From positions 1 through 64,000 of the forward strand of contig CAVNZM010000019.1 of assembly GCA_963693365.1 (NCBI GenBank): a stretch of 64,000 nucleotides of DNA. Direction: 5' to 3'. The notes below the pieces were generated by a model. The model searched no databases, had not been told where the DNA came from, and saw nothing but the letters and a program-made list of their open reading frames with translations. How positions within the stretch are numbered: the stretch's first letter is position 1; the number at the start of each line of letters is the position of its first letter. The position numbers were made by a program, and so were the translations under genes. Origin of the DNA: Amoebidium appalachense. Lineage: Eukaryota > Protista > Ichthyosporea. This document shows, piece after piece, positions 34,041 to 52,000 of the stretch.

Positions 34041-37000
34041 CTAGCAGCTCATGGAGAACAGCCAGTCACCTTGCCACTGCATTTCCTTTTGGAAAACCAG
34101 CCAGCCGAACCCATTCTCCCCCTTGACTCCTGCCGTCGGCCCAAGCTGTGTGTGTGTGTGTGTGTGTGGGGGGGGGGGGGGGGGGGGGGGGGGGGGGGGG
34201 GGGGGGGGGTATGTGTATGTGTGTGTGTGATGCCAAACAGCGTTGGTGGTGGTGAGGACCGGTTGGAACGGTAGAAAGGCGGGGGGGGGGGGGGGGGGGG
34301 GGGGGGGGGGACACGATTTGGTGGTTTAGTCTGAGTGCTAGTGTGTCTGTGCAGGCGTTGCCATATAGCTATGCTAAAGCACTCGGCCGTGTGCGCAGCC
34401 TGTCACTGTGTGTGCAAAAGTATGTGCACTTTTTTTTATTTTTTTTATTATTTACTGCCCTTTCCCGGTGATAGTGTATCAATGTGTATCAATTGATAGA
34501 CCATCTAATTTTCACTATCAATTGATACACAGAGTATAATGCACAACGAAATGGGCCTATTTTTCTCTGTTTACCGATTACGGCTGGTGTCCGCCGACCC
34601 TGGGTACGTACTGCATCCATCCACAGCATCATGTGTTTGAACATAACGCATGTAGGAGCTTGAAACGACCCCCCCCCCCCCCCCCCCCCCCCCCCCAAAT
34701 CATCATACACACACACACATATATATATATCATAGTATATACTATGATATATATGTGTGTGTGCGTATGCGTGTGCCTGCGTATGTGTTCATGCGCGCGT
34801 GTGTGTGTGTGTGTGTGTGTGTGCTTGCGCGCTCACGTGTGTGTTGGTTTTTCTTTTTTTTTTTTTTTTTCTGGGAGGGGGGAGGGGGGGGATAAAAGGC
34901 GCAGGCGCGGCCCTGCCTACGTACCACTAGTGCCCGGTGACCTTGGATCTTGCCACTGTATGTAAGGGTCTCTCCCAGACACTCGATGGTACCACCGCCA
35001 TTGTTAAGCAGATCATCAGCTTGCAGCACCCCGTTCACAGCGCTAACAGGATATTGGAAGTTGACCTTGCAGAGGCCCATGGCACGCACATAACTGTGTG
35101 TGTGTGTGTGTGTGTGTGTGTGTGTGTGTGTGTGTGTGTGTGTGGGGGGGGGGGGGGGGGGGGGGGGGGGGGGGGGGGGGGGTGGGGGGGAGGGGGGGGG
35201 GGGGGGGGGGGGGGGATTTTGAATGCGTCAAAAAGTACGAAGTACACAAGAACAAACGGATAACACGATGCAGAATGCAAGCCATACATAAAGAGTATGC
35301 ATAATAAGCAGAGCCCATCCTCAGAGGGGGGGGGGGGGGGGGGGGGGGGAGAGGGAGGGAAGTCAACACACAGGGGGAGGGGAGAGGGAGGGAAGTCAAC
35401 ACAATGTCTGGGGGGATGTCTGAGGAGGGGGAGGGAGGGAGAATGGCTCATTCCTTCCCCCTACCCCCTTCCCTCTTCTTTCCTTTCTATTCTTCCTTTG
35501 AAATTTCCTTCGCGTTTCTGTTGCGTACTACTTTTTTCCGTTTCTGTTGCGTACTACTTTTCCCCCCATCTTCTTTTATTTGCCCCCCCCCCCCCCTCTT
35601 TTTTTTTTTTTTTTTTTTTTTTCTTTTCTTTTTTTCTTTGGGGGGGGGGGGGGGGGGGGGGGGGGGGGGGGGGGGGAGGGGGAGGGGGGGGGAGGGGGGG
35701 GGGGGGGGGTTTGAGCTTAGGCCCATACCGCCGTGTAGAGGTGTGGTATATATGGGGCACAAAAAATATAAACTGTAGCAAAAGTTGTAATTTGGAGCAT
35801 GTGTGAAAGAAAAGGGTCATGCAGCACACACAACTGGCGGCTAGAAGTCAATGTTCACATGTCGTGTGCTTAGCCTTACGTAGACAAAGAAAAACATACC
35901 TCTGGCAGTCCCACGCTTCGATGCCGATGGGGCATCTCGCCACCTCTCCTGTGATCGTTAGAAGACCCTGAATGGGGTCATAGGATCCGACAAGCCCGGG
36001 GGTCGTCGAGAACTCGCAGTTGTAAAGCATTTCACCCCAAGTTGGAGACTTCAAAGTTAAGCAGTAACCGCCGTTGGTCGGGTCGGTCGTGTTGAATACC
36101 GTGCGAGCTTGCGCCGACTTAACCGCACCTGCCCCAGCATTGGAAAGCATGAAAGTAAATGCTTGGCTGGAAGAGAAACAGCCGGAGGAATGGGAGAAGT
36201 TCCTCGGAGGAATGTGTGTCGGGCTCACCACTGCCTGAGTGTCAGACGTAATGGTTGTGGTTGTGCTTGTGGTTTGGGTCGAAACTGCAGTCCAACTACC
36301 ACTCGAACTGGTTACTGGTGTACACGTGGTTCCATCCCCCACATATCCGCTATTGCACGTGCATGTTACCCCGGTTGCGGTGTCTGAGCACGTAGCATTT
36401 ACACTGCATCCATGAGTACCAGAAGCACATGTAACTGCTAATGGTGTGCTGCTTTGTGTAGTGGTGGCTGGTGCTGGTGCCGGGTCCACTGAGACGGCAG
36501 ATGGAGATGGGCTAGCAACTGCACCACCTGCAGGCTGAACTGAACTTGATGACAGAGTTGTTGTAGGTGTTGTCGTGGTGGTTGAGGCGGTGGTTAAGGC
36601 GGTGGTTGTTGTGGTTGTTGTTGTTGTTGTTGTTGTAGGTGCAGGTGTGCAAACAGTCCCGCTGCCTACGTAACCGGCGTTACACGTGCAGGTGAACCCG
36701 GTAGCGTTGGATGTACAAGTGGCACTAACATCACAGTTATGGGTGCCGTTTGCACACAAAGCGAAATCTGAGGGGGAGTGTTTTTGAATAAGTTTGCCGT
36801 TTGTTCAAACAGAACGTGTGTTCAAACAGAACGTGTGTCCATATAGAAGGCTAAAGGTTCAGAATTCATTCCGAAATCCTGTTCAGAATCCCAATAACAG
36901 CCATGTGAAAAAAAGACATCCGTAAACACTTCAAAAGTCAAAAGTCAACACCAAACCTCTTCAGCCCCACGTAGATATCAGTCAATACCGCAGGCTACCC

Positions 37001-49000: not shown

Positions 49001-52000
49001 GGTATTGCCGTGCTCGTGCGATATTTCCGTCTGATGCAAAGGGTGTGTAGCGGAAGCACCAGTGACTACGTAAGTGATGCAAAGGGTGTGTACCGGAAGC
49101 ACCGGTGACTACGTAAGTGTGTATCTCATCGGGGGGGGGGGGGGGGGGGGGGGGGGGGAGGGGGGGGGGGGACCGGGGAGGGGAGGAGGTGGGGGGGAGG
49201 GGGTCTGAGAGAATGAGAAAGAGAGAGCAAGAGTGCGTGTACGTTTATCAGAGAGGACCAAAAGACCACGAGAGAGCAGGGGAGAGAGAGAAAGAGCACG
49301 AGAGAGAGAGAGAGAGAGAGAGAGAGAGAGAGAGAGGGGGGGGGGGGGGGGGGGGGGGGGAGGGAGAGAGGGAGCGAGGGAGAGAGAGAGAGAGAGAGAG
49401 AGAGAGAGAGGGAGGGAGGGAGGGAGGGAGGGAGGGAGGGAGGGAGGGAGGGAGGGAGGGAGGGAGAGAGAGATGATGAGCCAAAAAAAAAAGGGAAGGA
49501 TGCCCGGGGGGGGGGGAGGGGTAGAATAATTTTGAGAGAGGATTTGTGATGTGGCGGTGGCAACTCACCTACGGAGCATGCATTAGGATCCATGCCTTCC
49601 ACACACAGGTCGTCCTTTGAACATGTCAGATTGTAGGGTGGGCGGAGTCCTGTAGCAGATATGTTAGTTGATCATATTTTCACACCTGAAAAACCAGATC
49701 CCTTGATAGCATGTAACCAACCGCCTTCACTTTGCCGACATGTACATACTTGTACTCGTAATACCCACACACAAAACATGGTTTACCAGAGCCACTAACA
49801 CGTGAACTAGCGTTTGGAAGCTTACTAACCTACCCAATTCCGTCTACTTACTGTCAATGGTGTAAATCACCGAATCCGCTTCTGCCGCCTCTGCAGTCGT
49901 GTTGGTGCAAGCGCTTGATAGACCACAACGTGCTCTGCCGTGGGAATAGCTCACAAAGTTGCACTGCGTGTTTTGGAGGCAGTGCTCGCGGCAAGCCATG
50001 AGATTTTCCGCTACCTGCCATGTGCCAATGAAGGTGGCACACTTCTGGCCAGGATCCGACATCTTCTTGACACCCGAGCCATCTGCATGTGCGGGAAAGA
50101 AAGGGGGCAAAGAAAGCCCCGGCGGGGGGGGGGGGGGGGGGGGGGAGGGGGGGTGGGGGGGGGGAGGGGGGGGGGGCAGGGGGGAGAAAAAGGGGCAAAA
50201 GAAGAGGGGGGGGAGGGGGGAAAGGGGGAGAGGGGGGGAAGAGAGAGAGAGAGGGGGGGGGGGGGGGGGGGGGAGAGATAGGGAGAGGGAGAGAGAGAGA
50301 GAGAGAGAGAGAGAGAGAGAGAGAGAGAGAGAGAGAGAGAGAGAGAGAGAGAGAGATTTTAGCTCCTCCAGGATGCAAAGATGCCCTGCCGCAAGCAGCA
50401 TTCGACACATGAAATGGAAAAGGTAACGAAAGGGTAGCAAATATTTTACCCTGCTCATTTCTTTCTTTATTTTTTTTGCTTTGTTTTTTTTTTTTCCGAG
50501 GGAGGGAGGAAGTTTGCGGGGGGAGCTCGGCGGGGGGGGGGGGGGGGGGGGGGGGGGGTTGAATGCGTCAAAAAGTACGAAGTACACAAGAACAAACGGA
50601 TAACACGATGCAGAATGCAAGCCATACATAAAGAGTATGCATAATAAGCAGAGCCCATCCTCAGGGGGGGCCCACGTCATCCACAGTACCCGAGTTTCGA
50701 CCTATTCCCCTCGTTAACGAAACCCAACTCAGATACTGTTTCACTTGAACATGAGTAGGTCACCCGTCTTGATCAGAGACGAGCAGGGTTGCTTATGCAG
50801 GCAAGGGCAGTGGGAAAGGCCGGGGGTTACAGTTGCAGCAGTAAGCAGAAGCAAAAAAAATATAGATAGGAACTCAGGAGACGGGGCTTCTAGGAAGCTC
50901 CCCCGTCGATACCTAAGTCGATACTTCCCTGGCTAACATACTACACCAGCTGAAAAGAATTAAGTCCCGAAGGCCGCAGAATTCGCAATCAGAGGGGAAA
51001 ATATGAGATTTGACCCACGCCACAGGGTAGTAACACGCTTACTAGGGCGGAACTTTATCGTCTTCGAACGGAAAGCTATGCCCCCGGATGTCAGCCGGAA
51101 ATATGGTATCACCCATTGCTTTGGGCTTGAAAAAAGCCAAACCGATAGTCCGAGGGGGGGGGGGGGGGGGGGGGGGGGTTGGAGGGGGAGGAGGAGGGGA
51201 AGCAGATCCTGATGATTCGAGAAAAAAGGGTGTGTTAAGGTGTGGAGCTTGGTGTGGTGCCACATGATGGGCGGGACCACTTGAGGAGTAGGAGCTTGGT
51301 AGGAAATTGGGGGGGGGGGGGGGGGGGGGGGGGGGGGGGGGAGTGATAGATACTTTAATGGCAGCAGTAATTGTACGTATACCAGGGGTTTGATGATCAC
51401 TTACCCTCGCTGCACGAATCCCAGTCATCAAAGAGCAAGCACTTCTCGCTGTCTGCGCATGTATTTGGCCGGAGGGACGGGGTATCTGTGTTAAAGATTC
51501 TGTTAGTCATTTGCAAAATATGCAACAGTATATTACAGGGGTGAAAGGTTTTGAAACAAAGCCCTTTTTGCACTGCACATTGTCAATCAGATGGGACGGA
51601 ATGCAGGTATTTTCACTTTGATCATACAGACTAGTGGATGGAAGCATGCGCCGTATGATAAATTGCGCATTCTGGAAATCTCCGACATATGAGGTCAAGA
51701 ATGAATAAACAAAAAACTAATATTAAGCTACTGGTTTCCAAAGCTGCAATGGCAGAGTGACTTAGTTGCGATGCGTAGCATAGCACGATCATGCAAGATT
51801 GTAGCACGATCATGCAAGATTGTAACAAAGATGGTTAATACCTTGGACTGTGTACACGATCATGCAAGATTGTAACAAAGACGGTTAATACCTTGGACTG
51901 TGTACACGGCTGAGTATCCAAGTGGGGCTGCCTCGTCGCATGTTTTGCTGAGCAGACAGTTTCCTGCTCTACCACCGTCGGTGTAGTAGGTCAGGTACTT

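Follow-up and report, generated by a model that had tools for sequence, protein, structure and literature searches.

Introduction

Targeting of (C)n runs has been reported for many Chlamys Penelope-like elements (PLEs), for which a table gives 13 families (Craig et al. 2021, PMC8557442). The consensus sequences examined for the (C)n families end, in 11 of 12 cases, in A plus 4-6 C (AA plus 4-6 C in eight of these), and one ends without C (PMC8557442). De novo insertions of Chlamys-9 and -N4 have a median length of 128 bp and are all intronic, at (C)n (bioRxiv 10.1101/2022.05.23.493040). Chlamys 3′ untranslated regions (UTRs) can reach several hundred nucleotides (nt), and non-autonomous Chlamys elements and retrozymes have already been described. 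Here, we compare these systems with a repeat element present in three copies in the first 64,000 nt (the window) of contig CAVNZM010000019.1 of Amoebidium appalachense (assembly GCA_963693365.1). It should be noted that Chlamys and Naiad family names were assigned by file order in the Craig et al. supplement.

According to Craig et al., Naiads and most Chlamys elements spread without canonical hammerhead ribozymes, which may merely parasitise them (PMC8557442). In the endonuclease-less Athena and Coprina elements, telomeric-repeat stretches anneal to the primer (Craig et al. 2021, PMC8557442). A purified PLE begins reverse transcription at an internal position of its RNA that shares no homology with the cleaved DNA (Frangieh et al. 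2024, PMC11167929), and uncut RNA is its main reverse-transcription substrate (PMC11167929). Non-circularly permuted hammerheads of types SGC and CSG come from metatranscriptomes and metagenomes, and from no known organism's genome save for one GCS candidate (Eckert et al. 2023, PMC10085705); these authors use a scheme of six types and take block C as uninterruptible (PMC10085705).

In the reading that we consider probable, the window element belongs to a young family of retroelements, present in high copy number, whose insertions fall at G/C runs and duplicate them; it is likely a PLE of the Naiad/Chlamys type with a predicted permuted hammerhead. A preliminary description of this DNA knew of no described equivalent; Chlamys PLEs that target (C)n and whose consensus ends read A(A)C4-6 are in fact published (PMC8557442). 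What is new is the permuted hammerhead order at the element's 3′ end.

Results

Three window copies share one 3′ end

The element bodies are as follows:

35217-35324, minus strand: copy 1, 108 bp, 5′ truncation inside the element's internal C7 run, 3′ end A4
39119-39268, minus strand: copy 2, 150 bp, 5′-truncated, 3′ end A4
50559-51153, minus strand: copy 3, 595 bp, 5′-truncated, 3′ end A2

All three have one common end and differing 5′ ends, which bears out the fixed 3′ end and variable 5′ truncation described previously. Over their common spans they are identical (108/108 and 148/148 bases in pairwise comparison). Sequence comparison and five short motifs revealed no further copies in the window. 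Copies 1-3 appear to be placed between predicted exons; the host genes of the window are intron-split, encode EGF, SdrD-like and PAN repeat proteins, and lie on the same strand as the element copies.

Insertion at G-runs and target-site duplications

Each copy is flanked by G-runs on both sides, and target-site duplications (TSDs) can be read for copies 1 and 2:

35190-35216, unstranded: downstream TSD of copy 1, 27 bp, reading GA, G24, A on the plus strand and identical to 35324-35350
35324-35350, unstranded: upstream TSD of copy 1, its first base common to the element
39101-39118, unstranded: TSD of copy 2, 18 bp, comprising 7 unique bases and G11, identical to 39270-39287
39270-39290, unstranded: upstream target copy of copy 2, with G14, 3 longer than the 3′-junction run
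50532-50558, unstranded: 3′-junction run of copy 3, G27, with the duplication wholly within the run and its length not resolvable
51154-51178, unstranded: 5′-junction run of copy 3, G25

The G-run lengths at the 3′/5′ junctions are therefore 24/24 (copy 1), 11/14 (copy 2) and 27/25 (copy 3). At copy 1 there is no G surplus, and the element is joined to the target's A lying beyond the run. The window contains 107 G/C runs of 8 or more bases (median 22), and junction positions in or adjoining such a run amount to 2.7% (plus) and 0.9% (minus). The chance of 3/3 insertions at such runs is about 5e-5. The flanking G-runs noted before are confirmed. The TSD TGTGTTA(G)n was likewise correctly described, being exact over 18 bp at copy 2, but the count of one copy with a TSD was too low, as the exact 27-bp TSD of copy 1 had been missed. 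The sequence (G)nTTG after the downstream run is present in copies 2 and 3 but not in copy 1, and none of six further G-led 5′ flanks shows it; we therefore rejected it as a general feature of the family.

Among runs of 8 or more, 79 G-runs and 28 C-runs are read on the plus strand, the host genes being on the opposite (minus) strand. Run-duplicating insertions may feed this excess of G-runs. The window also holds a segmental duplication (2528-10623 / 19615-27787; 99.6-99.9% identity), in which paralogous G/C runs are unequal in length by 0, 14, 1, 0, 1, 5 and 5 bases.

The family beyond the window

The element stretch, or part of it, is present in 20 of the 24 public runs listed, from 8 studies; none is recorded as RNA, and X15 and X20 may be RNA runs. 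Matching contigs number 8736 in run X1 and 2998 in run X2, with many common variants and at least three subfamilies. Among the 16 loose ends listed out of 24, 12 lie behind the element; exclusion of two rows at 50806 (a subfamily's own continuation) and of one duplicate at 50934 leaves 9 distinct 5′ flanks. Of these, 6/9 start with 3-11 G, 1/9 is ambiguous (it follows an internal G-run) and 2/9 do not start in this way. The background for a flank starting with at least 3 G is 4.9%, against which 6/9 gives a p of about 1e-6; public-run contigs are biased toward short G-runs. Of the 12 joints with intervening letters listed for run X1, out of 15, four end at the element's 3′ end, and 4/4 have at least 4 G preceding the T-run. 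Thus, the proposed enrichment of G-run flanks over background holds for the window copies and for those in public runs.

The four head-to-tail joints in run X1 could also be nested insertions into G-runs, and the window holds none. Searches of metagenome, prokaryote-genome and viral collections for 20- and 27-base words taken from the element gave no exact match.

The Cs at the 3′ end

The element's own end is TTC followed by an A-run, of 4, 4 and 2 As in copies 1-3 and of 1, 2, 3 and 3 As in the four run-X1 joints. The preliminary description had placed a C tail on the RNA, pairing with a nicked G-run. This is unsupported: no junction needs a tail, the TSD accounts for the Cs, and the A-run varies from 1 to 4. 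The TSDs of copies 1 and 2 are exact and leave no surplus G at the 3′ junction, and the Cs behind the element can be read as target DNA. Nor do the window junctions, at which resolution is limited, show a tail in excess of the target duplication, as in a long interspersed element (LINE) with a homopolymer tail. What does stand is a young, target-primed, 5′-truncated family with TSDs, inserted in one orientation at G/C runs, which it duplicates.

A LINE-like family with a poly(C) tail added to its RNA, pairing with a nicked G-run as L1 poly(A) does with T, would likewise have one constant 3′ end, truncated copies, TSDs and a preference for G-runs. It also finds a parallel in a separate element of this window with an apurinic/apyrimidinic endonuclease and a reverse transcriptase (APE-RT; 12563-16980), which terminates in A3 C5. 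The empty paralogue of that element (about 11530) is without a G-run and there is little or no TSD, so its five Cs do not come from the target. In at least this single instance, the genome thus harbours Cs borne by an element. On the other hand, a tail is unnecessary at every junction of the family studied here, no open reading frame 2 (ORF2) homology was found in the part recovered, and no link was found between the APE-RT element and this family. To our knowledge, moreover, a 3′ motif of the PLE kind, such as the one set out below, is not known from LINE 3′ ends. We regard an added poly(C) tail as highly improbable. In the literature searched, which left most subscription journals outside reach, no description of C-tailed retrotransposons was found. 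The APE-RT element was also considered as the mover of the C-run family and set aside, as the two have no common sequence and the former has little or no TSD.

A weaker form of the tail would retain the same element but prime it by C:G pairing, with encoded donor-flank Cs of read-through transcripts annealing to the nicked G strand, as in Athena/Coprina. Several observations favour it: G adjoins the T-run or is one base away at 7/7 3′ junctions observed, Chlamys consensus ends are written with C4-6 (PMC8557442), Athena/Coprina provide a precedent (Craig 2021), and small G surpluses would be hidden by run-length noise. Against this, the primer at copy 1 terminates with an A that lies past the run, and the G-runs on its two sides have the same length. 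In addition, A-run length ranges from 1 to 4, which makes a fixed C:G register unlikely, since in-register pairing would copy a constant number of As, and PAc works in vitro without homology (PMC11167929). Priming helped by such read-through Cs seems unlikely to us.

A predicted permuted hammerhead near the 3′ end

Three hammerhead core strands, all within the 3′ 250 nt, occur in a non-circularly permuted, pseudoknotted order, namely:

50644-50796, minus strand: predicted hammerhead, pseudoknotted and non-circularly permuted, with closing stem 50796-50786 / 50656-50644 and hairpin 50784-50762
50756-50761, minus strand: stem II 5′ strand, located before the cleavage block and not after CUGAnGA, 6/6 pairs with 50704-50699
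50723-50739, minus strand: block S, with stem III strand, GUU triplet, predicted cut after 50726, and stem I strand
50683-50704, minus strand: block G, with stem II 3′ strand, GAAA, and stem III strand, 13/13 pairs
50658-50667, minus strand: block C, with stem I strand (3/3 pairs) and CUGAGGA core

Read 5′ to 3′, the order is stem II 5′ strand, GUU cleavage block, GAAA block and CUGAGGA. The core letters are all present (CUGAnGA at 50664-50658, GAAA at 50698-50695, NUH at 50728-50726), and the predicted cut lies 167 nt from the element end. Seven helices account for 47/47 pairs (stem I 3, stem II 6, stem III 13, extra helix 7, hairpin 8, closing stem 7+3), with five helix pairs crossing in the model. 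A descriptor of the permuted order, composed after the motif had been seen, gave one match in 128 kb (both window strands) and 0/5000 in shuffles of the element. Copy 2 lacks the motif apart from blocks G and C.

Other folds were tried and rejected. No canonical hammerhead, whether of type I, II or III, was supported, the canonical core-stem II-GAAA order having no match in the element in the descriptor search; half-core motifs are present, as in Naiad/Chlamys 3′ UTRs. Rfam returned a partial hammerhead match at 50688-50761 (14 bits vs. a cut-off of 34), one of 4 weak matches in total, all below cut-off. A fold like that of hepatitis delta virus was rejected by eye. Among at least 120 metagenome and 2 viral loci with the three-block pattern, 15/122 (13 distinct) passed a relaxed descriptor; these were taken as chance, because none has the extended helix by eye or a BLASTN match to the element.

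Natural variation was examined for 12 of the 17 variant rows at 50634-50800; the other five, excluded, do not exceed about 0.4% in X1. None of the 12 falls in the core; five are unpaired, four still pair alone, one is restored by its partner, and two break a pair. The variants at 50757 and 50703 restore a C-G pair in stem II at 3-4% each, their linkage on a single contig not being shown. In a distant subfamily, read by eye, a partner change restores the pair of 50675, and stem II has two more changed pairs.

The hairpin loop before stem II (50776-50770, minus strand) carries a six-base palindrome, also conserved in the distant subfamily, which is a possible dimer contact.

The same cyclic S-G-C block order can be read by eye in at least 16 of 54 Naiad consensus sequences (3′ UTRs; PMC8557442), a lower bound from reading around motif matches. 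Eight Naiads show the contiguous CSG form (two Pristionchus, three Nippostrongylus, Haemonchus, Heligmosomoides and Stegodyphus mimosarum) and eight a split form (Beroe, three Acropora, Pomphorhynchus, two Octopus and one unnamed), again by eye. In these eight split-form Naiads (Bfor, Amil, Aacu, Anas, Plae, Obim, Ovul and one more), stem II is detached, as in the window element. No report linking Naiad/Chlamys elements to permuted hammerheads was found in the literature searched.

Coding content and autonomy

The longest copy had been thought to retain a decayed ORF2 Cys motif. This did not hold: the motif sits in a stop-bounded frame of 41 amino acids (aa) without a Pfam match, and 4/5 variants of this frame at 50909-51058 are non-synonymous, one of them, which makes up about 39% of the depth summed for run X1, replacing a motif Cys. 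When 120 non-LTR ORF2 proteins were compared with the 595 nt by tblastn, three weak matches resulted (E 0.018-0.038), none on the Cys motif and none credible. Copy 3 is non-coding in all six frames, and the longest stop-free stretch of its 5′ part is 63 aa. For the minus-strand 63-aa frame 0/18 candidates were homologous, the plus-strand 63-aa frame gave no matches in 1.84 billion proteins, and three candidate frames had no Pfam match. Thus, no homology to an L1-like ORF2 was found in copy 3, and the 595 nt recovered contain no APE-RT ORF2 with a C-terminal Cys motif of the L1-like LINE kind.

These results bear on whether the element is autonomous. Contigs of three runs extend 167-233 nt beyond the 5′ end of copy 3, and those of X14 and X15 stop 231 and 233 nt past 51153. 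Together with 595 nt lacking an open reading frame (ORF), and with the non-autonomous Chlamys elements and retrozymes cited above, this would fit a retrozyme-like, ribozyme-bearing element some 830 nt long that is wholly non-autonomous and relies on a PLE in trans for its movement. Contig ends within repeats need not be element ends, however, and the length of known Chlamys 3′ UTRs speaks against reading the missing ORF in this way. We consider non-autonomy quite possible; it differs from the preferred explanation solely in autonomy, and the mechanism is compatible with both.

Assignment to the Penelope-like elements

Assignment to the Naiad/Chlamys type draws on a fixed 3′ end with frequent 5′ truncation, on a microsatellite bias with an A(A)Cn end, and on the permuted motif. 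Several observations weigh against it. The window has no inverted copy and no clear pseudo-long terminal repeat, and no PLE ORF (reverse transcriptase, endonuclease) was recovered within the 595 nt of copy 3. No primary-sequence match to published PLEs was shown, an 11-letter loop word being absent from the Craig supplement, and (C)n targeting and the ribozyme motif come from different subclades (Chlamys vs. Naiad). As paralogous runs vary by 0-14 bases, run lengths leave room for a few templated Cs. With regard to the ribozyme, stem I has only 3 bp, the stem II strand is not directly after CUGAnGA, and GUU is a weak cleavage triplet. The minimum-energy fold of 50550-50830 does not surpass shuffles (z 0.18), by a method that cannot model pseudoknots, and variants 50671 and 50675 (2/12) disrupt the extra helix when alone. 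Finally, among the loose ends listed, 0/16 fall at 50725-50726.

The hammerhead-like strands could accordingly be a dead relic or a non-cleaving structure that binds the reverse transcriptase. The short stem I, the interrupted C block, copy 3 spanning the cleavage site and the lack of loose ends at that site would all fit. The core letters are invariant among the listed variants, though, and all three core strands are found again, in this interrupted arrangement, in animals that are only distantly related. We find a relic or binding structure possible but doubtful, and think it fairly probable that the predicted hammerhead would cleave.

Other repeats in the window

The APE-RT non-LTR element at 12563-16980 (minus strand) is near full-length, with a 5′-truncated ORF1 and a frameshift between endonuclease and reverse transcriptase. 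It matches Pfam RVT_1 and Exo_endo_phos, and its best relatives are 39% and 35% identical. It splits the second copy of a repeat present in two copies of 98.6% identity (11096-11612; 12126-12562 plus 16983-17060), which ends in a 45-bp tandem and has on its minus strand a frame rich in Cys, without a Pfam match. A fragment of a related non-LTR ORF2 (18758-19258, minus strand; 45% to P0001) ends at (GA)n plus a G-run. At 28440-32850, inverted repeats of 216 bp (87%) flank frames that by eye resemble the start of a Gypsy-type protease/reverse transcriptase; these frames had no Pfam match.

Discussion

A proposed route of insertion

Judging from the clade, a GIY-YIG endonuclease, either the element's own or that of an autonomous partner, would nick the G-rich strand within a G-run or immediately past it. 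The junctions suggest that the reverse transcriptase takes the nicked 3′ end and starts within the short terminal A-run, a C tail being unnecessary. Synthesis halts early, often at short target homology, as copy 1 shows with its 5′ end inside the C7 run, and a second cut 18-27 bp off yields the duplication, with the Cs as target DNA. Each insertion creates a new G-run open to later copies. The hammerhead would trim transcripts that are long or in tandem, either at a slow rate or aided by protein; uncut RNA probably gets copied, because copy 3 spans the predicted cut.

Significance

For the idea that Naiads carry active non-circularly permuted hammerheads, of the CSG form in nematodes and the spider and of the split form in corals, the ctenophore, the acanthocephalan, octopuses and this family, we see the balance as even. 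If true, such ribozymes would be placed for the first time in the genomes of eukaryotes, and a permutation outside the six-type scheme would be added. High-copy genomic families would also offer natural alignments and a testable seventh arrangement compared with those of Eckert et al. A conserved permuted hammerhead in Naiad/Chlamys 3′ UTRs would reverse the argument of Craig et al. on hammerhead-free spread. Furthermore, the TSDs of 27 and 18 bp fix the positions of the two cuts on a (C)n target, something often not discernible to Craig et al., and such readable TSDs offer a simple substrate for a G-run nicking assay.

Comparison with known systems

L1, which primes by poly(A):T pairing, has in common with the window element the fixed end, 5′ truncation and TSD; it differs in that the window element is without a long tail and without ORF2 homology, and in that the primer is G and not T. 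Athena and Coprina have a hammerhead close to the 3′ end, as is predicted for the window element, and also C-rich sequence next to a primer rich in G, but they attach to telomeric overhangs, whereas the window copies are internal and have TSDs.

The SGC and CSG hammerheads (PMC10085705) share with the window motif all core letters, the cyclic S-G-C order, the crossing stems and an extra helix that ties the arms. In those types block C is uninterrupted, with the stem II strand 1-2 nt after CUGAnGA; here, the stem II 5′ strand is at the motif start and reaches CUGAnGA only via the closing stem and hairpin. This detached form was not found in the literature searched. The motif would thus work like type SGC/CSG, yet is assigned to neither.

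Chlamys elements (Chlamys-1, -2, -9_cRei and the non-autonomous Chlamys-N4_cRei) have the same (C)n target in fixed orientation and the same A(A)C4-6 consensus end. The Chlamys (C)n elements also share the heavy 5′ truncation to about 100-150 bp, the head-to-tail copies and the likely intronic sites. The Chlamys (C)n ends examined by eye are without a permuted hammerhead, whereas the window element has a predicted one, plus readable TSDs (27 and 18 bp). Naiads, all from animals, list (TA)n or no target preference, while the window family targets (C)n; the Acropora Naiad Amil, read by eye, has in addition to the detached stem II the same closing stem and hairpin before stem II as the window element.

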